From a virus, in UHGV virus genome UHGV-0020835: 64,000 bases of DNA; one strand, given 5' to 3'. Made by a program: the position numbers and the translations under genes. This document shows positions 1,109-27,358 of the stretch, piece by piece; position 1 is the first letter of the stretch, and each line of letters starts with the position of its first letter. The notes beneath the pieces are model-generated. The model was not told the DNA's origin and made no database searches. It worked only from the letters and a program-made list of their open reading frames with translations.

Positions 1109-2200
1109 ATGGCACTTGATATTACAAATCTTGAGGAAACTACAATTACCACTGGACTTGAGGGTAAGATTCTGGCTTGGTACGGTACGAACAATATTGG
1201 AAAGAGCCATGTGGCCTCCAAGCTGTTCCCCGGCAAGACACTATGGCTAGCGACCGAGAAGGGCTATAATGCCATTTCTGGTATGCGTAAAGTGGATGTT
1301 GAGTCTTGGAATGATTTCCGACAGGTTGTGTCTCAGCTTACTGTTAAGAATGAAAAGAAGCGTGAGAAGGTACGGGCTATGTACCAATGCGTTGTAGTGG
1401 ATGTTGCTGACCGCCTACCCAACTTGGCCACTGCTTATATCATCTCCACTTATAACACTCAGAACGCTGAAAAGTCTGATTTTACCCCTATTACCGAGTT
1501 GTCTGGTGTTCCTTATGGTGGTGGCTATGCCATGCTAAACAAGGAGATGGACAGCCAAATCAATAAGCTGGCACTATCTGGTTACTGTGTTGTTCTAATC
1601 TTCCATGATGAAATCCGTAAGGTTAAGGATGGTCGAGAGGAATACGAGTACGTTGTGCCTAAAAACACTTTTAACAAGGCTGGTAACGCTCTAAAGGATA
1701 TTCCTGACTTTATGATTTATCTTGAGTCTCAGGGTGTTGATGAAGATGGAAAGGCATTACTGTCTATTGGTCATTGTGTACAGCATAAGGAGTATTTTGC
1801 TCGGAGCCGGTTTACTGAGTGCCCTGAAACAATCAACCCCTTTACTGCTGACAACCTAAAGGAAACTGTGCGTATTGCGTGTGAGCGTGAGGCCGAAAAG
1901 CAGGGTGTGTCTACTATCACCTATGCAGAGGAAGAAACCCGGCGTGAAAAAGAAAAGGCCGAAAAGAAAAAGTCTGCGTCTGAATTGATTGATGAGGTCA
2001 AACCCATCTATGGTGCTTTGCGTAAGGCCAAGCTAACCGCAGCGGTTAATAAGATTGTGGGTGACTTCCTTGGTTATGATGAGAATGACAAGCCCAATAA
2101 GATTAGTGAGGCTGATGACTCTCAGGTCGAGGCACTACAATATATTTATGACAAGCTGGTAGACTTGGCTGAAGAAAAGGATATTAGCTGGGAAGAATAA
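1109..2200 (+). CDS. P-loop ATPase, Sak4/RecA-like (AAA_24-type) recombination protein
   Basis: Walker A-like YGTNNIGKSHVAS near the N-terminus and hhhhD Walker B-like CVVVDVAD. Length and position match phage Sak4-type ATPases. Confidence 0.4.
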   Translation: MALDITNLEETTITTGLEGKILAWYGTNNIGKSHVASKLFPGKTLWLATEKGYNAISGMRKVDVESWNDFRQVVSQLTVKNEKKREKVRAMYQCVVVDVADRLPNLATAYIISTYNTQNAEKSDFTPITELSGVPYGGGYAMLNKEMDSQINKLALSGYCVVLIFHDEIRKVKDGREEYEYVVPKNTFNKAGNALKDIPDFMIYLESQGVDEDGKALLSIGHCVQHKEYFARSRFTECPETINPFTADNLKETVRIACEREAEKQGVSTITYAEEETRREKEKAEKKKSASELIDEVKPIYGALRKAKLTAAVNKIVGDFLGYDENDKPNKISEADDSQVEALQYIYDKLVDLAEEKDISWEE

Positions 2201-2632: not shown

Positions 2633-2666
2633 GATGGCGGTATGATTAAGATAAAGGAGGGATAGT

Positions 2667-2834
2667 ATGACAGTAGCAGAACTAAAACAAGCCTTGTCTA
2701 AATACCCAGACGGTATGAAGGTCAAAGTTAATATCGACCGAGCGCTTAGAGAACTGGACGATGTATCATGGGGCGTTGATATGAACACTAATATTACCTA
2801 TGTTTGGTTAGTTGGTAAGGAGAAGAAGCGATGA
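2667..2834 (+). CDS. small hypothetical protein (about 55 aa)
   Basis: ORF MTVAELKQALSKYPDGMKVKVNIDRA... preceded by an AAGGAGGG RBS. Its stop overlaps the next start (ATGA). Below the 60-aa cut-off of the ORF track. Confidence 0.35.
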   Translation: MTVAELKQALSKYPDGMKVKVNIDRALRELDDVSWGVDMNTNITYVWLVGKEKKR

Positions 2835-3013
2835 AGATATTATATTATGCTGTATTCATCGAAGGTAGGCCATATTATTTTGGTCTCGAAGAGCTTGCTA
2901 AAGCATTTGAATTCTCTGACGGTTATTGGTTAATACAGATGGCTTACATTGATGCTGACCGACAGTTGAAGTATAGGTATTTTAATCGAGAAAAATGGGA
3001 GTTTGTTGATTAA
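2831..3013 (+). CDS. hypothetical protein
   Basis: 60-aa ORF translationally coupled on both sides. Confidence 0.35.
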   Translation: MKILYYAVFIEGRPYYFGLEELAKAFEFSDGYWLIQMAYIDADRQLKYRYFNREKWEFVD

Positions 3014-5592
3014 TGCTTTATTCTTCTAACTATAGTGCTTTATTGTTGGGTTGCCTAATGAACAACACCCAACTTCTATTCAATCCATCTTACCCCCTAA
3101 CAAAAACCGACTTTGACCCTGAGCCGGTACACCGTATCATTTTTATCGCCACTTGTAAGTTGGCTGAAGCTGGGGCTGGTAGCGTTAGTGAGGTTGAGAT
3201 TGATAATTATGTCAAAGACTATCCGGTTCAATATGAAACGCTAAACGATAGCAATTTTCTTGACTTTGTGCCTACTGTAAAAGAGCTATGCTCACCTGAG
3301 AGTTTTGAGCTATATTATACCACCTTGCGTAAGTTCAGTCTGTTGCGTGAGCTTAAAGAGGATGGGTATAACATTGCTGATTATTATGATGAAATGCTCG
3401 ATGAGACAGAGCAAATGGCCAAGTTAAACAAGTGGACTATTGGCGAGATTCTTACTGACATTGAGTTTAAGTCGGCAAAGCTGAGAACTAAGTACGATGT
3501 TAAGTATGTACGGAACGAAATCAAGGCTGGTGAGAATGTAGCCGAACGGCTTGAGGCGTTTAAGGAACAACCGTCATTTGGTGCTTTGTTCCAGAGCGGG
3601 TATTTGAGTACAATTTGGAATGGATGGTGCAGAGGGCATTTGGGGCTAAGAGGCGGTGGGTCTGGTACAGGAAAGGCCATTCCTAATGACACAATTATTC
3701 CCACTCCTAACGGAAGTAAGCGTGTTGATGAAATTAAGATTGGTGATTATCTTTATAGTCGCGAAGGCAAACCAACTAAAGTTGTTGGTGTATTCCCACA
3801 GGGCAAAAAAGAAGTATGGGAAGTTGAACTAAAAGATGGACGTAAGGCTAAATGTTGTGATGAACACTTGTGGTCAGTATATAGCACTAGTCGAAATAAA
3901 AGAGGACATACACAGCCTTTTGTTTATACTTTGAAAGATTTAATAAAAACAGGTATCATGGATAACAAAGGTTACAGATTTTCTATTCCTATGCACAGTC
4001 CCATCAAGAAAGAAGAGAAAGAATTTTTTATCCCTCCGTATCTAATGGGTTTGTTTTTAGGTGACGCAAGTTTGCGTTCTCAGCCTTCTAATCACGTTTT
4101 TAGTTTTTCTTCGCCCAATGAAGAATTGCCAAACGTTATAGCTAATACAATGGGATGGACTTATAAAAGAAACTCTCTTCACAACTACAATTGGACTTTT
4201 TATAACCATGGTAAACTTGTTCATGTTGAGCATGTTCTGAAAGATTATCCTGAGTTAATCAATACCTATTCTCATACTAAGTTTATTCCTCGTGATTATC
4301 TTGACGGTTCTGTTCAACAGCGTTTTGAATTATTAACCGGTCTGCTTGATACAGATGGCAGCATTAGCCCCAGAAGCGGTTTAATTAGTTATTTTACAAC
4401 ATCAAAGCAACTAAAAACAGATATTGTTGAGCTATGTTATTCTCTTGGAATGACTGTAAACGTTAGGATGGATGTTCGTGAAAATAAAAGAACTTGTTTT
4501 GACCTTAAAATTCATTGTGATAAAAAATTAAAATCAACGGTGTTTAAGTATTCGCCTAAAAAAGCAATCGCTGTGTCTTATACACAAACTATTAAACGAC
4601 AAGAGCATAGAGATAGGATTCAGATTGTTTCGATTAAAGACCTTGGTTATAAAACAGATATGACTTGTTTCTTAGTTGATAACGATGAGCATTTGTTTCT
4701 GATGAATGACTTTATTGTTACTCATAATAGTCGTTTTGCAGTAGCTGATTTGGCCAAAGTTGGAGCAAAAGAGCTATGGTCAAATGAAATTGGTGATTTC
4801 GTTGTCAATGATAATTATCAATCACCTACTCTATTCATCGCTACAGAACAAGACATTGAGACAGAGGTTGAACCGATGTTTTGGTCTGCTGTGAGTGGGG
4901 TTGAGTATAGGTCTATTAAGAATGGCCTATGTACGCCTGACGAAGAAGCCCGTATTGTCAAAGCTGGTGAGATTATCGCCCAATCCAATCTTCATATTAC
5001 GTCTATGCCCAACTTTAACACAAAAGCCCTGAAACGTAAAATCAAAGAGATGGTTGAGTGTGAGGGTATCGGGTATTGTGTATTTGACTATATGGAACAA
5101 CAGGGCGATATTAGCCAAGAGTATCGTGAGGTTGTAGGCAGTGCTGGTAGACAAGACCAAGTGTTGCTGTATCTGGCCACTGAACTCAAGACAATGGCTG
5201 AAGATATGAATGTTGGTATTTTGACAAGCCAACAACTAAATGATACATGGAAAACCCTTAGCTTTGTTGATGAAACGGCTTTGGCTGGTGGAAAATCGAC
5301 TAAGAATAAAATCGACTTTGGCTCCATTATTATTCCAACATCCTACCTGCGCAAAGACATGAAGCAGATTGAGCCTTATTTAAAGCGTAATGGAGTAGGC
5401 AATAATCGTCAACCCATGCCTAACATTTGTGAGTTTATCATCAAGTCACGTTATGGCATTTATGGTGATAAACGCCTAAAGCTATGGTCATACTTTGACC
5501 GTGGTACATTCCAACGCCATGATTATTTTGTAACAGATGATAAAAATAATGTGTTGGATGATATTCAACCCAGTGAATTGGGGGATTTTTGA
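3013..5592 (+). CDS. DnaB/gp4-family replicative DNA helicase, intein-containing precursor
   Basis: Walker A GGGSGTGK is interrupted after Lys221 and resumes with S-RFAVADLAK, which restores GxxGxGKS. The C-terminal extein has DnaB-like features. The insert carries two LAGLIDADG motifs. Confidence 0.65.
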   Translation: MLYSSNYSALLLGCLMNNTQLLFNPSYPLTKTDFDPEPVHRIIFIATCKLAEAGAGSVSEVEIDNYVKDYPVQYETLNDSNFLDFVPTVKELCSPESFELYYTTLRKFSLLRELKEDGYNIADYYDEMLDETEQMAKLNKWTIGEILTDIEFKSAKLRTKYDVKYVRNEIKAGENVAERLEAFKEQPSFGALFQSGYLSTIWNGWCRGHLGLRGGGSGTGKAIPNDTIIPTPNGSKRVDEIKIGDYLYSREGKPTKVVGVFPQGKKEVWEVELKDGRKAKCCDEHLWSVYSTSRNKRGHTQPFVYTLKDLIKTGIMDNKGYRFSIPMHSPIKKEEKEFFIPPYLMGLFLGDASLRSQPSNHVFSFSSPNEELPNVIANTMGWTYKRNSLHNYNWTFYNHGKLVHVEHVLKDYPELINTYSHTKFIPRDYLDGSVQQRFELLTGLLDTDGSISPRSGLISYFTTSKQLKTDIVELCYSLGMTVNVRMDVRENKRTCFDLKIHCDKKLKSTVFKYSPKKAIAVSYTQTIKRQEHRDRIQIVSIKDLGYKTDMTCFLVDNDEHLFLMNDFIVTHNSRFAVADLAKVGAKELWSNEIGDFVVNDNYQSPTLFIATEQDIETEVEPMFWSAVSGVEYRSIKNGLCTPDEEARIVKAGEIIAQSNLHITSMPNFNTKALKRKIKEMVECEGIGYCVFDYMEQQGDISQEYREVVGSAGRQDQVLLYLATELKTMAEDMNVGILTSQQLNDTWKTLSFVDETALAGGKSTKNKIDFGSIIIPTSYLRKDMKQIEPYLKRNGVGNNRQPMPNICEFIIKSRYGIYGDKRLKLWSYFDRGTFQRHDYFVTDDKNNVLDDIQPSELGDF
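3676..4728 (+). mobile_element. intein (about 351 aa) with LAGLIDADG homing-endonuclease domain, in-frame in the helicase P-loop
   Basis: The N-terminal block AIPNDTIIPTPNG...IKIGDYLYS matches intein block A but starts with Ala instead of Cys/Ser. LAGLIDADG motifs are LMGLFLGDAS and LLTGLLDTDGS. It ends with the C-terminal VTHN motif, and the +1 extein residue is Ser. Confidence 0.6.
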
Positions 5593-6021: not shown

Positions 6022-7405
6022 TGGTACTGCGAAGCCCTATGTTAAATTTCCTTCTAATGCTTCTGTCTCTGTAGCTGGTTCGGCACATCTTGTTCGGTTC
6101 CAGCAATATGGGATTTTATTAGATTGTGGTATTGCCCAAGGTGGAACAATCGAAGGGGATTATCAAAGAAACAAAGACTTGTTGAAAAGTTTACGTGTTA
6201 AAGACATTCAGTGGATCATACTGAGTCATTGCCACGGAGATCATGGGTCTTTAATTCCCGCATTATATGCCAAAGGGTGCCAAGCGCACCTTTATGCGCC
6301 AAAAGGGTCTGTTCCTTTCCTTAAACTTCTATGGGAAGATTGCTTAAAAATTCACCAATCTGATTGCCTCAAGCTGACCAATAAGCATGGCAAGGGCTAT
6401 AGCCCATTGTATACAGCAGATGATATTGAGACGGCTTTAAACAGATGTATTGAGGTTGATTATCACCAAAAGACTTATCTAACCAAAAATATTTGGTTTG
6501 AATATTATCCTGCTGGGCATATCATCCATGCGGCTCAAATATATCTATCCATGACACAAGGTTATCAAGAATATCGGATAGGGTATAGCGGTGATGTTGG
6601 CGGCCCCACTGAACGGCCCTATACAGAGCCTTATGAGCCATTGCCTTTTGTAGACACACTTATCCATGAGTGTACCTATTGTCAACCCGGACGGCCCAAT
6701 AGCGTTAAAGATAGGCCCAAAGATATTGAGAAGATTGAGGCTGTGGTTAGAGATAGCCACAGGGTTTTATTTCCCGTATTTTCTCTCGCCCGCGCCCAAG
6801 AGTTGCTTACTGAGTTATTTAGTATGTGGACAATGGATATGTTACCTAATGACATCTCTGTTTATCTTGATAGCCCATTGGCTATTAAAATGTGTAACAT
6901 TTGGCCTGAAACGGGCAACTGGAAAACTATAATGAGTTGGCCTAATCTTAAATTTATCGAGGATACGGTCGAAAGCAAGCGTTTACAAATGAGCAATCAG
7001 CGCTGTATCATCCTTTCGGCCAGTGGTTTTCTTGGGGGCGGACGAGTATTAAGCCACCTTACTACAATCTTACCCAACCCTAACAACACCATTTGTTTTG
7101 TCGGCTTTTCAGGGGAAAACAACCTTGCGGCCAAGATTAAATCTAATGAGCCATTTGTTGAGGTCAATGGGGCGGTAATTGAAAACAAGGCCAAAATCGT
7201 AGACTTGCGTTCTTGGTCAAGTCATGCAAGTTATGAAGAATTGATGCATTATCTTAGCACTCTGCGATATAATAAAATCTGTTTGGTGCATGGTAACATG
7301 GAGGGTAAAGTTGAGTTTGCCAAAGTCCTCAAAGAAAAATTGGTAGAGCAGGGCAACTCTAGCCGTGTTGTTGTAGTTAATCAGGACACAAAAGTTAAAA
7401 TTTAA
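6014..7405 (+). CDS. metallo-beta-lactamase-fold nuclease, beta-CASP-like
   Basis: The HxHxDH motif is present as ILSHCHGDHGS, and downstream His/Asp residues are spaced as in RNase J/CPSF-type beta-CASP enzymes. The start was moved to an ATG preceded by GGAGGAAC. Confidence 0.55.
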   Translation: MGNGTAKPYVKFPSNASVSVAGSAHLVRFQQYGILLDCGIAQGGTIEGDYQRNKDLLKSLRVKDIQWIILSHCHGDHGSLIPALYAKGCQAHLYAPKGSVPFLKLLWEDCLKIHQSDCLKLTNKHGKGYSPLYTADDIETALNRCIEVDYHQKTYLTKNIWFEYYPAGHIIHAAQIYLSMTQGYQEYRIGYSGDVGGPTERPYTEPYEPLPFVDTLIHECTYCQPGRPNSVKDRPKDIEKIEAVVRDSHRVLFPVFSLARAQELLTELFSMWTMDMLPNDISVYLDSPLAIKMCNIWPETGNWKTIMSWPNLKFIEDTVESKRLQMSNQRCIILSASGFLGGGRVLSHLTTILPNPNNTICFVGFSGENNLAAKIKSNEPFVEVNGAVIENKAKIVDLRSWSSHASYEELMHYLSTLRYNKICLVHGNMEGKVEFAKVLKEKLVEQGNSSRVVVVNQDTKVKI

Positions 7406-9353: not shown

Positions 9354-10097
9354 ATGAGTAATGTTAGAGTTGATTACACCGGACAAAAATTTAACCACTT
9401 AACGATTCTTGGTGACGCAGAAAGCAGGGTTACTAAATCTGGTCTAAAAATTAGGCGAGTTAATGCAATTTGTGATTGTGGCTCTACGGCAATTTATTCT
9501 TATGATTTAGGAGAAATTATTTACGGGAATACAAAAGGTTGTAAAGAATGCAGAGCGAAAAGGCAAGGTATAGATAAAAAACTTCCATTTAATCAATATA
9601 AGATTGACGGCGATAAAGTTTATATTTATCATGATACTATTCCTGATTTTTATACAATTATTGATTTGAAATGGTTAGCGTATTTTAAGAATTACCATCT
9701 TGGGTGTACGCCAAATGTACCAGAAGATAGTTATTGGTATATTATGCAAAACGGCAAGCGAAAAAAATTGCATCAAATAATTTGCGGCTTTAGGGCTGAC
9801 CATATAGACGGGGATAAAAATAACAATCAAGAAAGTAATTTACGCAAGTGTACCCATCAAGAAAATAATCTTAATCGTAGAGGGAATTATAATAATAAAG
9901 TTGGGTATAAAGGGGTCACAACTTGCAGCTATCTAAAAAAGAAAAAATATCGCGCCAAAATTGAATATTCTGGTAAACAATATAATTTAGGATACTATGA
10001 GAAACCCGAAGATGCGGCGAGAGCTTATGACCGTAAAGCAATAGAACTCTTCGGAGAATTTGCTTGGACAAACTTCCCAAGGAGCGATTATGAATAA
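9354..10097 (+). CDS. free-standing HNH homing endonuclease with AP2 DNA-binding domain
   Basis: HNH motif HIDGDKNNNQESNLRKCTHQENN. The C-terminal AP2-like segment is YKGVT...YRAKIEYSGKQYNLGYYEKPEDAARAYDRKAIELFG. Confidence 0.6.
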   Translation: MSNVRVDYTGQKFNHLTILGDAESRVTKSGLKIRRVNAICDCGSTAIYSYDLGEIIYGNTKGCKECRAKRQGIDKKLPFNQYKIDGDKVYIYHDTIPDFYTIIDLKWLAYFKNYHLGCTPNVPEDSYWYIMQNGKRKKLHQIICGFRADHIDGDKNNNQESNLRKCTHQENNLNRRGNYNNKVGYKGVTTCSYLKKKKYRAKIEYSGKQYNLGYYEKPEDAARAYDRKAIELFGEFAWTNFPRSDYE

Positions 10098-12099: not shown

Positions 12100-13123
12100 G
12101 AATAGTCAATAGTCCACCTTAAAAGAGATAAACTGCGGGGAACTCCTTAGAGCCTTAATAACCAAGCATATATAGGGATATATATGTGGCGTTCAGTAAC
12201 GGGAACGGTACGGTAACATCATTAAGGATTGGACAATCAAACGCAACGACACCTCAAGTATCGGAATGAGGGACGCTCAACGACTATAACCTCTGAAAAT
12301 TGTATAGTCTAAACCCAAATTGTTGTTTAATTTCACAAGAAAGGAGGTGTAAATATGCCAAGTTATAAAGCAAATTTTAATTATTTTGACAAAATTGATA
12401 CGCCTGATAAAGCATATTGGTTAGGATTCATTTGGGCTGATGGTTATATTGCCAAAAGAGAACGTAAACAACTTAACGGTTGTGTGCGAATTGAATATAA
12501 TTTGAAACTGGCGTTGCAAGAGAGCGATGCTTCTCATGTACAGAAATTTTTGGATTGTATAGAAAGTAATTACCCAGTTCATTTTTATCAATCAAACGGC
12601 TTTAATAAAAAGTCGAGATTAGAAGCAAGAGCTTTTGTTACTAATCTTCATTTATGTTCTTTATTATATGAAGATTATGGTATTGTGCCAAGACGCTATG
12701 ATATTTCTTTGGTTATTAAGGTAATACCAAAAGAATATGAAAAATATTTTATTCTTGGCATTTTTGACGCTGATGGTAGTTTTGTTGCTTACCAAGGAGC
12801 TTATGGCCAAAAGATGAATATAACATTTGGTGGCAGCGAATCTCTATTGCATTTTATAGAGAGTCATTTAACAACAAATGAAATTATCTTAAAAGCCGAT
12901 ACTGGGTCTGGGCAACGAAAATTGCATCAACGACATGAAGGCAAAGACGGCACTTGGAGGACTTTGAATTTTGCTGGTAAACAGCAATGTATGAAGATTA
13001 TAAATTATCTTTATAAGGATTCTCCAATTTATCTTAACCGCAAATATCAAAAATATTTGGATTTGCCATATCATAATTAAACAACAATTTGTTAAAGTAT
13101 GCCGAAAGGCAGGGTATAATTGG
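12100..13123 (+). mobile_element. group I intron (about 1.0 kb) interrupting the recJ-like gene
   Basis: It contains a complete LAGLIDADG endonuclease ORF. Excising it restores a conserved DHH motif in frame. The 5' exon ends in U and the intron ends in G. The 12102-12354 region is noncoding and structured. Confidence 0.5.
12355..13080 (+). CDS. LAGLIDADG homing endonuclease (intron-encoded)
   Basis: Two LAGLIDADG motifs, YWLGFIWADGYI and ILGIFDADGSF, with its own AAGGAGG RBS. Confidence 0.7.
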   Translation: MPSYKANFNYFDKIDTPDKAYWLGFIWADGYIAKRERKQLNGCVRIEYNLKLALQESDASHVQKFLDCIESNYPVHFYQSNGFNKKSRLEARAFVTNLHLCSLLYEDYGIVPRRYDISLVIKVIPKEYEKYFILGIFDADGSFVAYQGAYGQKMNITFGGSESLLHFIESHLTTNEIILKADTGSGQRKLHQRHEGKDGTWRTLNFAGKQQCMKIINYLYKDSPIYLNRKYQKYLDLPYHN

Positions 13124-14562
13124 TTGACTGTGATGGTATGTGTTCTGCGACCATTGTTCGTCAGTTCCTTAATACACAATACAACATTGACCCTATTATC
13201 TACATCCGCAAGGGCAAGGCTCATGGCCTAAGAAAGTCAGCCTCAGATGATGTCGTACCCAAGATTATTGAGGATGGATGTCAACTACTAATTGTACCAG
13301 ATGCCGGGTCGAATGATGTTAATGAGTGTCAAGACCTACTAATGCACAGATGTCATACCTTGGTTTTAGACCATCATAAGATTGAGGTTGATAACCCTTG
13401 GGCTGTTGTTATCAATCATCACTTAGGCGAAGGGTTGAATATGGCTCTGTCTGGTACAGGTGTAACGGCTAAGTTTATTGAGTATTACTGTCAGAAATAT
13501 GGCTTGTTTATCCCCTATATAGATGACCTTGTGGCCATGTCTATTATCTCTGATAGTTGTGACCTAACATCCTTAGAGAACAGATATTATGTCCATAACG
13601 GCTTACACAACGTCCAGAATCCCCTAATCCAAGCCATGTTGCCCTCAGCAGTTAAGCGTTATGGCCTAACGCCTACTGGTTACAGTTGGGCTATGATTCC
13701 GTTAATCAACGCTATATGTCGCAAAGAAGAGACAGATGAAAAGCATAAATTGTTTGATGCTTTTAGTGGCCATGGCGATATTGAATCTGCTCTAAAGATG
13801 TGCCGTTCAGCTCACCGCCTACAAACAGAAACGGTGAAACAGGCCGTAGAGGATGTTGAGCCTACTCTTGACCTTGACCATAAAGTGATTATTGGATTTT
13901 GCGATAGTGGGCTGGCTAACCAAATTGGCCTGATTGCTAATAAGTTCCAAGGCAAATACAATAAGCCCACTATCCTACTGCGTCAAGCAAGCTCTACAAC
14001 ATGGTCTGGTAGTCTAAGAAGCCCCGTGGATTTAACTGATGTGGTTAATGAGTCTGGTTTAGCTAAGGCTATGGGACATAATCAAGCTGCTGGTGTGTTG
14101 GTTCGCAAGTCTAATCTTAATCGTCTGATTGCTTATCTTGATGAGGCTGATTTCCCGCTTGAGCCTGAGATTGATGTAGCCGGGTATATCGCCCCTCAGC
14201 AAATCAATAATAAGCTTTGCAAGGCTTGCGAGGATAATGCTGAGTTGTGGGGTCAGGGGCTTAGAGAACCCACCTTCTACATCAACGCCGAGATTGACGA
14301 GACCAATGTACAGGTCTTTGAAAAGCGCACTACAACAGTAAAAATTACAGTAAATGGCGTTGATTTTCTGCTATTTATGGCCACACCTGAACAAGTAGAC
14401 AAGTTGACACAAAAGGGCAAAAAAAGCCTATCTTTGATTGTAACTTTGTCTACGAACGAATGGAATGGCGTGGTTAAGCCTCAAGGTAAAATTAAGCAGT
14501 TTGAGGTTGGTGAGGTTGAGGATAAGGGTGAAAGTAAAGAAAGCTGGATGGATGATTTTTGA
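13124..14562 (+). CDS. recJ: RecJ-like DHH phosphoesterase, exon 2
   Basis: Carries the rest of motif I (DCDGMCSA), LIVPDAGSND, and the DHH motif itself (LVLDHHK). The DHHA1-like C-terminal part has GHNQAAG. Confidence 0.6.
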
Positions 14563-24331: not shown

Positions 24332-25561
24332 ATGGTTATCCTAAAAAGAGACGGCAGACAGGTAGAATTTGATAGAAGCAAGATTTTCAATGCGGTTTAT
24401 AAGGCTTTTGAACAATTAAACAAGCCAAGTGACGAAGCCACACAAATTGCTGGCAAAATTGCGAATGAGATTGAGTCTGGATGTAAAGAAGGTAGTAGTG
24501 TAGAGGATATTCAAGACATCGTTGAAAAAAAGCTAATGGCAAGTAGTTATAAGGATGTGGCTAAGGCTTATATTAACTATCGTCAGCTACACAAGATGGC
24601 TCGTAATCAATATAAAGAACTCATGGATGCTGTTGGTGAAAAACTATCAGGGTCTAATATTGAGAATCAAAACGCCAATGTAGATGAGCATAGTTTTGGT
24701 GGACGTATGGGCGAGGCCACAAGAATCGTGACTAAGAAATTCGCCCTTGAGAACCTTGTGTCTCCTGTGGCCAAAGCTAATCATGAAAACAATGAAATCT
24801 ATATCCATGATCTTGACAGCTATGCCGTAGGCAACCATAACTGTCTATCTATTCCTTTTGATGATTTGCTTGCTAAGGGATTTAATACTAGACAGACAGA
24901 TGTAAGACCGGCTCAAAGCATCAATACAGCCTTTCAGTTGGTTGCAGTTATTTTTCAGTTACAGAGCCTACAAGAATTTGGCGGTGTAAGCGCAACCCAT
25001 CTTGACTGGACAATGGTTCCTTATGTGAGAAAGTCGTTCTGGAAACATTTCAAAGACGGCCTTGTTTACATTCAGAAGGAACCACGTCCCACCGATGACC
25101 ACTTCGACCCTAATTGCCCTATTAACGCAGAAATTTATAAACTGGCTGATGAAGCATATGACTATGCTATGGATATGACCACTAAAGAGTGCTATCAGGC
25201 CGTTGAGGGTATGTATCATAATCTGAACACACTACAATCTCGTTCCGGGAACCAGTTGCCTTTCACTTCAATCAACTACGGTACTTGCACATTGCCTGAA
25301 GGCCGTATGGTCACTAAAGCCCTGCTTGATACCTCTATCAAGGGTATCGGCAAGCTTCATCGTACAAGCATTTTCCCTTGCGGTATCTTCCAGTGTATGA
25401 AAGGTGTTAATCGTGAACAGGGCGACCCCAACTATGACCTATTTAAGTTAGCCCTTAAGTCCACTGCACAGCGCTTATACCCCAACTATGCCAATGTTGA
25501 TTGGTCTGGTAATGCTGGATATAATGTTAATGACCCCAAGACGTATTTTTCTACGATGGGT
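24332..25561 (+). CDS. nrdD: anaerobic ribonucleoside-triphosphate reductase NrdD, exon 1 (ATP-cone plus N-terminal catalytic part)
   Basis: N-terminal ATP cone ILKRDGRQVEFDRSKIFNAVYKAF. The exon ends ...YFSTMG before a U at 25561. Joining to exon 2 gives STMG-CRTANGWD, matching the SPMGCRS region of NrdD. Confidence 0.7.
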
Positions 25562-26377
25562 AAGCGGAAACTTAGCTCATCTAAAATCCTTATGAACCTT
25601 GCTAAAGGGTGTGTGGCTTAAAAAGCCATGCTAACGGATAGGACTCTATAGGAGTTGAGTCCGTGCTAAAATTCATCATAATACAAATATAAAAGAAAGG
25701 AGGATAATAATGACCTTAGAAGAATTTGATAAAATCACTAATGATTTTGTCCCCTTAAAAAGTACAGATGGACGGTTTGGTATTAACAAGTATGCTCAAA
25801 TCATAAACCTCAAAACAGGCCGACTTATTCATACTTATATCGGTGTAGATATGTATGAACACGTTGTTTTGTGTTACAAGGGTAAAAGATATAGGCAACG
25901 AGTTCATCGTCTTATGGCAGAAGCCTTTCTTAATAATTGTAAGGTTGTTGACCATAACGACACCATAAAAAACCATAATATTCTTTGGAATCTTAATCCA
26001 TCTACACGTTCTGAAAATATTGCCAAAGCCTATAAAGAAAATACTTATGTAAATCCACATAAAGGCCGTGGTATTTGGATTGTTGCGGAAAATAAAGAAA
26101 CTAAAGAAAAACACTTTTTTAAGAGTATGCGAGAATGTGAAAGATTTACTGGTGTAGACCGTCACAGAATCAAACATTTTCTCTTAAAGGAAAGAACTAA
26201 TCTTACCAACTTTAATTTTTATTATGATGAATGAAGTGTATCGACTATTTTCGGGGGAGTAACCCGGCAGCGGTAGTTTGTATCGCTGGTACGGCAAGAG
26301 ATTAGCACTTGCTGGAAGAGTAAGGACACCGAAAGGTGAAGATATAGTCAGTGCCGATGGTGACATCGGATAAAACG
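25562..26377 (+). mobile_element. group I intron (816 nt) in nrdD carrying an HNH endonuclease
   Basis: nrdD is split in two, with both exons in frame only after excision. The 5' exon ends in U and the intron ends in G. The arrangement parallels the T4 nrdD (sunY) intron. Confidence 0.6.
25710..26234 (+). CDS. HNH homing endonuclease (intron-encoded)
   Basis: HNH-type motif VVDHNDTIKNHNILWNLNPSTRSEN with its own AAGGAGG RBS. Located between the nrdD exons. Confidence 0.6.
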   Translation: MTLEEFDKITNDFVPLKSTDGRFGINKYAQIINLKTGRLIHTYIGVDMYEHVVLCYKGKRYRQRVHRLMAEAFLNNCKVVDHNDTIKNHNILWNLNPSTRSENIAKAYKENTYVNPHKGRGIWIVAENKETKEKHFFKSMRECERFTGVDRHRIKHFLLKERTNLTNFNFYYDE

Positions 26378-27358
26378 TGTAGAACCGCTAATGGCTGGGA
26401 CATCAACGGTCTTGGCCAACAGAAAGATGGCAGAGGTAATATTTGTCCCGTAACTATTATTATGCCCACTTTGGCTATGGAGACCAAGGAGCGAACAGAA
26501 CTCGCTAAAAATCCAAAGGAAGCTATTATTGATAGTTTTATAGATATTCTCGACCAAAAAATCCACGAAGCCAAAGATATGCTTATTGAACGTTTTAACT
26601 GGATTTGTAGCCAATCTCCTGAAGCAGCCAAGTTCATGTATGAAAACAATGTAATGGCTGGATATGTGCCAAAAGAAGGCATCCGCTCTGCCCTAAAGCA
26701 TGGCACTCTTGCTATTGGCCAGATTGGTCTTGCCGAGACTCTACAAATCTTGATTGGTCAAGACCACACCACCTCAGAAGGCATGGAAATCGCCAGGCGA
26801 ATTGAGCAACTGTTTAAGGATAGATGTGCCGAGTTTAAAGAAAACTATCATCTAAACTTTGGTGTTTACTATACCCCAGCAGAAAATTTGTGCTATACCT
26901 CAATGCAGAAGTTTAAGATTAAGTATGGTATTATCCCTAATGTTTCAGATAAAGACTTCTTTACCAACTCTATCCATGTTCCTGTGTGGAAACACATGAC
27001 TCCATTTGAGAAGATTGATATTGAGTCTCAGCTAACAGGCTATTCCAGTGCGGGCTGTATCACATATACAGAATTGGACAGCGGTGCCAAGAACAATCTT
27101 AAAGCCCTTGAAGCAATCGTCAACTATGCTATGGATAAGGATGTTCCTTACTTTGCTATTAACGTCCCCAATGACCAATGCATGAACTGTGGGTATTGCG
27201 ATGAAATGGATGATGATTGCCCTGAGTGCGGAAGTGAGGATATTAAGCGTCTACGGCGTGTGACAGGCTATCTAACCAATGATTATAAAACAGCATTTAA
27301 TGCCGGTAAACAACAAGAAGTTGAAATGAGAGTTAAACATCAGGAGTTCAATCAATGA
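26378..27358 (+). CDS. nrdD: anaerobic ribonucleoside-triphosphate reductase NrdD, exon 2 (glycyl-radical C-terminus)
   Basis: Four-Cys zinc site CMNCGYC...CPECG and the glycyl radical motif RRVTGYL. Confidence 0.7.
   Translation, partial: CRTANGWDINGLGQQKDGRGNICPVTIIMPTLAMETKERTELAKNPKEAIIDSFIDILDQKIHEAKDMLIERFNWICSQSPEAAKFMYENNVMAGYVPKEGIRSALKHGTLAIGQIGLAETLQILIGQDHTTSEGMEIARRIEQLFKDRCAEFKENYHLNFGVYYTPAENLCYTSMQKFKIKYGIIPNVSDKDFFTNSIHVPVWKHMTPFEKIDIESQLTGYSSAGCITYTELDSGAKNNLKALEAIVNYAMDKDVPYFAINVPNDQCMNCGYCDEMDDDCPECGSEDIKRLRRVTGYLTNDYKTAFNAGKQQEVEMRVKHQEFNQ

Follow-up and report, generated by a model that had tools for sequence, protein, structure and literature searches.

A probable class 3 intein with an embedded LAGLIDADG endonuclease in the Walker A motif of a DnaB-like phage helicase

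Why is the P-loop of an apparent replicative helicase split by 351 amino acids (aa), and what would become of them in the mature protein? The viral genome UHGV-0020835 raises this question. Here, we analyzed a stretch of 64,000 nucleotides (nt) from this genome (referred to as the window; all coordinates are those of the window unless another contig is named). On its plus strand, positions 3013..5592 hold a gene for an 859-aa precursor, recognized as a DnaB-like replicative helicase with an intein from the list of open reading frames (ORFs), a match to the Pfam model DnaB_C above its gathering score, and synteny with helicase genes on related phage contigs. An earlier note, made from the sequence alone, had placed an intein at positions 3676 to 4728, within the Walker A motif. 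Our analysis upheld this placement, and we conclude that the segment is very probably a class 3 LAGLIDADG intein that separates Lys from Ser in the Walker A motif of a DnaB-like phage helicase.

The boundaries of the insert can be drawn to the codon. The N-extein (3013..3675, plus strand; 221 aa) ends with the start of the Walker A motif, GGGSGTGK (3652-3675), with Lys221 as residue −1. The insert runs from codon 222 (GCC, Ala), whose first base is 3676, to codon 572 (AAT, Asn), whose last base is 4728; the next codon is AGT (4729-4731), encoding Ser. Between Lys and Ser lies an in-frame insert of 351 aa whose first residues are AIPNDTIIPTPNG and whose last are FIVTHN; the Ala start, the resemblance to intein block A, and the VTHN ending followed by Ser were all as the earlier note had described them. 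The C-extein (4729..5592, plus strand) comprises 287 aa and the stop codon, and its first residue, Ser+1, doubles as the Walker A Ser and the predicted +1 splicing nucleophile. Deletion of the insert gave a 508-aa protein reading ...GGGSGTGK-SRFAVADL..., in which the P-loop is restored. Predicted masses are 98.4 kDa for the precursor, 40.7 kDa for the intein, and 57.8 kDa for the spliced helicase. GC content was 34.4% in the intein versus 41.4% in the exteins.

Removal of the insert also changed the match to the helicase family. On the precursor, DnaB_C covered only residues 603-744, all of them after the insert. With the insert deleted, DnaB_C (PF03796) spanned extein residues 198-393, running across the 221/222 junction (E value, 1.8e-12; 47.7 bits versus a cutoff of 27). 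The exteins are thus contiguous with respect to the helicase domain, and the concern that they might not align continuously with DnaB-type helicases was not borne out.

Within the intein (3676..4728, plus strand; 351 aa), which carries an embedded LAGLIDADG homing endonuclease and a class 3 signature, the conserved splicing blocks could be located in order, all on the plus strand. Block A (3676..3714) begins with the non-nucleophilic Ala1 (GCC, 3676-3678). Block B (3838..3879; GRKAKCCDEHLWSV) was placed by alignment to the gp41-1 and Mycobacterium smegmatis (Msm) DnaB1 inteins; it contains His64 at B:10 (3865-3867) and Trp66 at B:12 (3871-3873), the first member of the Trp-Cys-Thr (WCT) triplet, as well as adjacent cysteines, Cys60 and Cys61, at B:6 and B:7 (3853-3858) within the motif CCDEHLW. 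Block F (4657..4704; DMTCFLVDNDEHLFLM) contains Cys331 at F:4 (4666-4668), the second member of the triplet, within DMTCFLV. Block G (4705..4728), reading NDFIVTHN, supplies the third member, Thr349 at G:5, followed by His350 and the terminal Asn351. The endonuclease region extends over approximately intein residues 101-313 (3976..4614, plus strand); these approximate limits were set by the part absent from a 143-aa mini-intein described below and by the secondary structure of the structural model. It includes two LAGLIDADG motifs, YLMGLFLGDAS (residues 122-132; 4039..4071, plus strand) with putative catalytic Asp130 (4063-4065) and LLTGLLDTDGS (residues 219-229; 4330..4362, plus strand) with putative catalytic Asp227 (4354-4356).

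Sequence and fold comparisons both placed the insert among bifunctional inteins. The Pfam model LAGLIDADG_3 (PF14528) matched the precursor at 4.6e-9, above its gathering score, and Hom_end was a further Pfam match in the endonuclease region. In phmmer searches of all PDB chains, the insert matched the gp41-1 intein (8.6e-12 for an engineered WCT variant and 6.9e-10 for the wild type) and the class 3 Msm DnaB1 intein (6BS8; 2.6e-6), with M. chimaera (Mch) DnaB1 inteins and PI-SceI also among the matches. A family profile built from the insert and 43 relatives (44-sequence alignment) raised these scores to 1e-22 and 7e-19 for gp41-1, 3e-15 for PI-SceI, and 3e-14 for Msm DnaB1 (6BS8). Modeled in AlphaFold2 together with 10 residues on either side, the insert reached a predicted local distance difference test (pLDDT) score of 89.7 and a predicted template modeling (pTM) score of 0.89. 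The 15 top PDB fold matches of this model in Foldseek were all bifunctional LAGLIDADG inteins, including PI-SceI (1.7e-16; template modeling [TM] score of about 0.67), the Tli and Pho VMA inteins, and PI-PfuI. Next in the ranking came the mini-inteins gp41-1, MchDnaB1, and MsmDnaB1, and then the free-standing LAGLIDADG enzyme I-DmoI. The elements expected of a Hint fold (blocks A, B, F, and G, the terminal His-Asn, and Ser at +1) are all in place, both LAGLIDADG motifs carry their Asp, and the fold of this part resembles the endonuclease domain of PI-SceI and I-DmoI. These matches lie far above chance level, and by sequence and predicted fold the insert is a bifunctional intein. No further intein copies were found elsewhere in the window by tblastn and a scan for the motif THN[ST].

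We next consider the splicing class. Class 3 inteins are defined by a non-nucleophilic residue 1, co-varying Trp (B:12), Cys (F:4), and Thr (G:5) residues, and Ser or Thr at +1 (PMC2807308), and they usually occupy the P-loop of helicase-type proteins (PMC2807308, PMC7664689). The insert contains the full set: Ala1, His64, Trp66, Cys331, Thr349-His350-Asn351, and Ser+1. Position 1 is Ala instead of the Cys, Ser, or Thr of class 1, and in alignments Cys331 falls on the block F Cys of Msm DnaB1 (VRCVEV) and on the Cys engineered into gp41-1_WCT. The earlier note had regarded Ala1 as the mark of a non-canonical intein; the residue is real, but it is not unusual, being typical of class 3 inteins in helicase P-loops (PMC2807308, PMC5050341, PMC6195587).

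The same signature recurs across the family. A search with the intein recovered 201 relatives. Among the best 120 of these 201, identity to the intein was 30-68%, mostly over the full length, and the hosts included DnaB, PhoH, UvrD, AAA_24 (Sak4-like), AAA_33, deoxynucleoside kinase, SecA-like, RecA, and terminase proteins. The layout GxGK/A...HxW...C...THN/T or S (slashes mark the insertion points) was general in this set, and every relative in it whose alignment extends to block F has the block F Cys. In the 44-sequence alignment, which draws on about ten P-loop host families, Lys at −1, the block B His, the block F Cys, and the block G T-H-N were invariant (each 44/44). Position 1 was Ala in 41/44 and Ser in 3/44, the block B Trp was present in 43/44, and +1 was Thr in 40 and Ser in 4 of the 44. 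Of the block B cysteines, B:6 was kept in 39/44 and B:7 in 19/44. Because the WCT triplet is complete in the insert and near-invariant across its relatives, the sequences support assignment to class 3, with a predicted first attack by the internal Cys331.

The earlier note had proposed instead that the intein splices through a direct attack on the downstream junction, a route that belongs to class 2. On this KlbA-like reading, Ser+1 would attack the N-terminal junction directly and Cys331 would merely assist. Ala1 fits this route as well, being common to classes 2 and 3, and the F:4 residue also assists catalysis in inteins of classes 1 and 2 (PMC2807308). Class 2 is, however, defined by the absence of the WCT triplet (PMC2807308), and here W66, C331, and T349 are all present and conserved in 43 to 44 of the 44 sequences. 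The solved relatives that the insert matched, Msm and Mch DnaB1, are class 3 by experiment (PMC6195587, PMC7664689). Furthermore, the +1 residue is Ser or Thr family-wide, which is the class 3 pattern. KlbA inteins use Cys at +1. We therefore consider the class 2 route highly improbable for this intein, and the complete triplet favors class 3.

A few relatives departed from the strict class 3 signature (P0040, P0041, P0056, P0044, and P0116). Three of them have Ser1 together with the block B Trp; two of these three also have the block F Cys and THN, and the record of the third stops before block F. The Ser1 relatives are hosted by a SecA-like protein and two other ATPases. In the other two departing relatives, Phe replaces Trp at B:12, with motif confirmation for P0116 only. 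Such relatives may be naturally occurring forms intermediate between classes 1 and 3.

We then compared occupied and empty alleles of the helicase. A search with the spliced extein yielded 120 orthologues, giving an alignment of 121 with the window protein. The P-loop was uninterrupted (GK/S or GK/T) in 112/121, and the 351-aa insert was found at the identical site in 8/121, including the window. At this site, the remaining orthologue (P0234, 645 aa) has a mini-intein of 143 aa, which aligns only to intein residues 1-67 and 315-351, that is, to the splicing core without the endonuclease. Among the listed empty alleles, 40 are exactly 508 aa long, the predicted spliced size, and are 68-94% identical to the spliced extein. 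Compared to a close empty allele on contig L001, the window differs by a clean gap of 1,053 nt (351 codons) between the Lys and Ser codons; the empty site (L001, about 6,560-6,760) reads ...GGTACAGGTAAA followed immediately by AGTCGCCTT... at the junction. Intein-less alleles in related phages, which the earlier note had suggested looking for, are thus abundant, and its own counterargument, that the insert might be a fixed domain of the helicase family, failed on the same 112 orthologues.

The occupied alleles are scattered among the empty ones. The exteins of P0143, P0151, and P0153 are nearer to an empty allele (97.8, 95.7, and 97.0% identity, respectively) than to any other occupied one (95.7, 93.1, and 95.7%); for P0143, the nearest empty allele is P0125 (97.8% extein identity). 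In all five alleles for which DNA was compared, GC content was lower in the intein (34-37%) than in the exteins (39-42%). This sporadic, site-specific spread of occupied among empty alleles is the pattern of a homing element.

Both parts of the intein appear to be maintained. In five divergent occupied alleles (the window, L004, L006, L007, and L008), the 859-codon ORF was intact, with no stops or frameshifts, and the catalytic residues of blocks A, B, F, and G and both LAGLIDADG motifs were identical. Across the 10 pairs of these alleles (Nei-Gojobori method), the ratio of nonsynonymous to synonymous substitution rates (dN/dS) was 0.05-0.15 for the whole intein, comparable to the 0.03-0.09 of the exteins. 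The endonuclease region gave 0.05-0.16 at dS values of 0.2-1.7, and the splicing part gave about 0.02-0.16 in 9/10 pairs. The splicing and endonuclease parts are both under purifying selection. Asp227 is present in 43/44 relatives and the Gly that follows it in 44/44. Taken with the two intact motifs, these values support an endonuclease that is active or recently active, in agreement with the earlier note.

Some observations weigh against a fully functional class 3 homing intein. The Hint and intein-splicing models of Pfam and the intein models of NCBIfam all scored below threshold on the insert, and therefore PDB sequence, profile, and fold searches were needed to find the splicing domain. 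When WCT and A1 were grafted onto the class 1 gp41-1 intein, the product showed mostly cleavage and little splicing (PMC7664689); the triplet by itself is therefore no guarantee of class 3 chemistry. Asp130 is kept in 33/44 relatives and replaced by Asn in 9, and endonuclease activity is therefore not family-wide. Finally, intein dS was clearly below extein dS in one pair, the window versus L004 (0.25 versus 0.50-0.54), and was comparable to extein dS in the other pairs, making the evidence for recent homing modest. Recent horizontal transfer was accordingly considered from low intein dS and not relied upon, since the signal is clear for the window versus L004 only.

Could the intein then be decayed or domesticated, with splicing or endonuclease activity lost, and persist as a dead-end allele or a retained domain? 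Inteins do cycle through invasion, endonuclease decay, and loss, an endonuclease-less version occupies the same site in a related helicase, and a related class 3-like "DnaB" intein of Arthrobacter is a documented pseudogene (PMC3196547); the subthreshold Hint scores could be read in the same way. Nevertheless, decay is hard to reconcile with an ORF intact in five divergent alleles with every catalytic residue identical, or with the strong purifying selection on both parts. The intein-bearing allele is present in near-complete phage contigs of 94-97 kb, and with the Walker A motif of an apparent replicative helicase split, an allele unable to splice would presumably be lethal. We therefore assign this explanation only a slight probability. 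That the insert is no intein at all, being instead a lineage-specific domain, a chimera created during assembly, or a free-standing LAGLIDADG gene fused to the helicase, has next to no likelihood and is refuted at the sequence level by the empty orthologues with their perfect junction, the clean L001 indel, and the fold matches. The 859-aa architecture also recurs in independent assemblies from JGI, ENA, and Logan samples, the insert boundaries coincide precisely with blocks A and G, and the model shows a Hint fold as well as a LAGLIDADG fold at high confidence. An exact look-up did not find the window protein in the public gene index, and this reading is otherwise a general possibility only.

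Returning to the class 3 intein, we infer its splicing chemistry and endonuclease activity as follows, the chemistry from homology, from the signature of class 3, and from what has been published for the DnaB inteins of Bethlehem and of mycobacteria. The 98-kDa precursor, its P-loop split, would not bind ATP properly. Cys331 (F:4), aided by His64 and Trp66, would attack the bond between Lys221 and Ala1, producing a thioester-branched intermediate on the intein, and the N-extein would then be transferred to the side chain of Ser+1. Cyclization of Asn351 would release the 40.7-kDa intein, and an O-to-N shift would yield the intact 508-aa helicase (57.8 kDa) with a normal GGGSGTGKS P-loop. When related phages co-infect, the endonuclease of the free intein is predicted to cleave their intein-less helicase alleles at the GK/S codons, and repair would copy the 1,053-nt element into the cut allele, resulting in homing.

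Among known systems, the mycobacterial DnaB-b (DnaBi1) inteins of M. smegmatis, M. leprae, and M. chimaera (6BS8, 6RIX, 6RIY) are the closest case in host, site, and class. They share the DnaB-type helicase host, the identical P-loop site with the Walker A Ser as +1 nucleophile (PMC6195587), and the WCT signature of class 3 along with a first residue that is no nucleophile. They differ in being mini-inteins of ~140 aa without endonuclease in actinobacterial chromosomes, whereas the window intein is full-length and phage-borne, and identity is about 26-30% over the splicing core. Splicing of Msm DnaBi1 is regulated by a disulfide between the nucleophile and Cys48 (PMC6195587); the corresponding residue is not Cys in the window intein, and its clade conserves Cys at B:6 instead.

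The class 3 prototype, the DnaB intein of mycobacteriophage Bethlehem (MP-Be DnaB), is likewise found in a helicase-type phage host, measures 341 aa with an endonuclease domain, and has WCT, an obligate block F Cys, and Thr/Ser at +1 (PMC2807308). It differs in having Pro1 and the flanks VSQDQ/.../TKNTF versus GK/S in the window. A 10-kb Bethlehem stretch (35-45 kb), not confirmed to hold the MP-Be intein, gave no tblastn match to the window intein. MP-Be DnaB was considered as the closest relative and dropped in favor of the DnaB-b inteins on account of Pro1, the other flanks, and the lack of a tblastn match. The "classic" P-loop insertion lies between the invariant Lys and Thr/Ser, as in mycobacteriophage TerL1-a (PMC5050341); inteins of this kind share the Lys/Ser-Thr site, many are class 3 with a LAGLIDADG endonuclease (PMC5050341, PMC2807308), and they differ from the window intein in their host proteins. 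Inteins related to that of the window were detected in 804 deposited phage genomes (255 mycobacteriophages), with identity of at most about 35%.

The best whole-molecule structural matches, PI-SceI (yeast VMA1), PI-PfuI, and the Tli and Pho VMA inteins (TM about 0.6-0.7), likewise combine a Hint domain with an inserted two-motif LAGLIDADG endonuclease. In contrast to the window intein, they are class 1 (Cys1, without WCT), reside in V-ATPase or ribonucleotide reductase, and are larger, with an extra DNA-recognition region; identity is 12-17%. The best sequence match among solved structures is gp41-1, from a cyanophage-like gp41 helicase (6QAZ; WCT variant, 6RIZ). Its host is also a phage DnaB-family helicase, and it shares with the window intein the block B motif EHL(F/W), Cys at B:6 (IICSEEHLF in gp41-1), and the THN/S end. 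Unlike the window intein, it belongs to class 1 (with Cys1, Phe at B:12, and Asp at F:4), is split in nature, and lacks an endonuclease. In sequence, the window clade is at least as similar to class 1 gp41-1 as to the mycobacterial class 3 inteins.

Two further readings, which do not exclude each other, concern history and regulation; jointly we regard them as unlikely. First, the window clade may be a natural, splicing-competent counterpart of the failed gp41-1_WCT graft. The origin of class 3 from class 1, by divergence or convergence, is under debate (PMC7664689). If this reading were true, a divergent class 1 to class 3 transition would be documented, as opposed to the proposed convergence, and the compensatory changes would be pinpointed. 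Second, a disulfide or a metal may link Cys60/Cys61 to Cys331, the predicted nucleophile. In that case, maturation of the helicase, and hence phage replication, would be redox-dependent, or dependent on a metal, as redox regulation is known for M. smegmatis DnaBi1.

The host protein itself is, on the evidence of its sequence matches, a divergent phage DnaB-like helicase and no DnaB equivalog. It matched Geobacillus and Bacillus DnaB structures weakly in phmmer searches. The full-length model of bacterial DnaB (TIGR00665) scored 41 bits versus a cutoff of 385, and the DnaB N-terminal domain (PF00772) reached only an E value of 0.14 on the spliced extein. A megablast search of deposited phage genomes with the helicase gene returned no DNA-level match, and by tblastn the best cultured relatives of the C-extein were from Enterocloster and other Firmicutes phages, at only about 34% identity. 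No cultured phage is thus a near relative.

The window is part of a tailed-phage genome, encoding a DNA polymerase, a Dda-like helicase or exonuclease V, a Sak4-like ATPase, a tape measure protein, and a portal protein. Related contigs of 89-100 kb were assembled from JGI, ENA, and Logan, and the source is an uncultured tailed phage of about 95-100 kb. Gene order near the helicase is conserved: YorF-like, AAA_24, helicase, beta-CASP nuclease. The segment directly upstream of the helicase (window 2633-3012; L001 4071-5764; L004 5173-5823) differs between related phages. It holds only a 60-aa ORF in the window, 440-aa and 99-aa ORFs in L001 and L002, and a 216-aa ORF with a faint match to D12-class methyltransferases in L004 and L005. 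This segment looks like a cargo hot spot adjoining the intein-bearing gene.

Inteins of this kind appear to have misled annotation. The public record for P0151 (an 859-aa orthologue; ERZ1034905 NODE_69, 96.9 kb) reads "DNA packaging protein [Herelleviridae sp.]", and several deposited phages have "terminase large subunit" or "RNA ligase" as the label of an intein-bearing P-loop gene at the place of the intein match. Such labels look like annotation errors due to the intein.

The replication module of the window holds at least four elements of homing type: the intein, a LAGLIDADG ORF, an HNH_3 ORF, and an interruption of nrdD. The free-standing 241-aa LAGLIDADG ORF (12355-13080, plus strand; LAGLIDADG_3, 3e-5; LAGLIDADG_1, 4.5e-4) lies among replication genes, just upstream of a RecJ-like DHH gene (13120-14562), and showed no sequence kinship to the intein by tblastn; it is the window's second element of LAGLIDADG type. 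A 247-aa ORF (9354-10097, plus strand) matched HNH_3 at 9.8e-6, with a weak AP2 match, a combination characteristic of free-standing homing endonucleases of phages. The gene for the anaerobic ribonucleotide reductase, nrdD, is interrupted and falls into two ORFs (24332-27358, plus strand). The first (24332..25621, plus strand) contains the ATP-cone and positions 2-266 of the NRDD profile, and the second (26351..27358, plus strand) contains NRDD 263-562 and the glycyl-radical domain. Within the 729-nt gap between them lies a 174-aa ORF (25710..26234) that matches NUMOD1 weakly and, on visual inspection, shows an HNH-like HRL...DHND...NHN pattern. A full-length, subthreshold Rfam match to a group I intron covers 26063..26370 (24.6 bits versus a gathering score of 50; E value, 6.6e-4 in a 1-kb search). 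Group I introns with homing endonucleases occur in nrdD of T4-type phages. The interruption is probably a group I intron with a homing endonuclease.

The intein family itself reaches beyond the helicase. The Sak4-like AAA_24 ATPase of the window (1109-2200, plus strand; 363 aa) is without an intein. In other phages, about thirty proteins of 588-603 aa (P0057-P0091), most with an AAA_24 match, carry a P-loop intein of the same family; the class 3 intein in these AAA_24-type proteins is about 40% identical to that of the window. One intein family therefore targets, in different phages, two genes of the replication module.

Taken together, the window intein is a textbook class 3 example at an already described P-loop site and leaves the current understanding of inteins unchanged. 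For annotation, the gene calls for two entries, a replicative helicase (508 aa) and a class 3 intein/homing endonuclease (351 aa), in place of the single 859-aa "hypothetical" or "DNA packaging" protein found in some public records of its relatives. A natural class 3 intein resembling gp41-1 could also be of use in protein engineering. The occurrence of one GxGK/S or T site across about ten P-loop ATPase families reinforces the published spread of class 3 inteins in phages, and the coexistence at one site of empty, full-length, and mini-intein alleles of one helicase cleanly illustrates how the intein life cycle plays out in uncultured gut-type phages.

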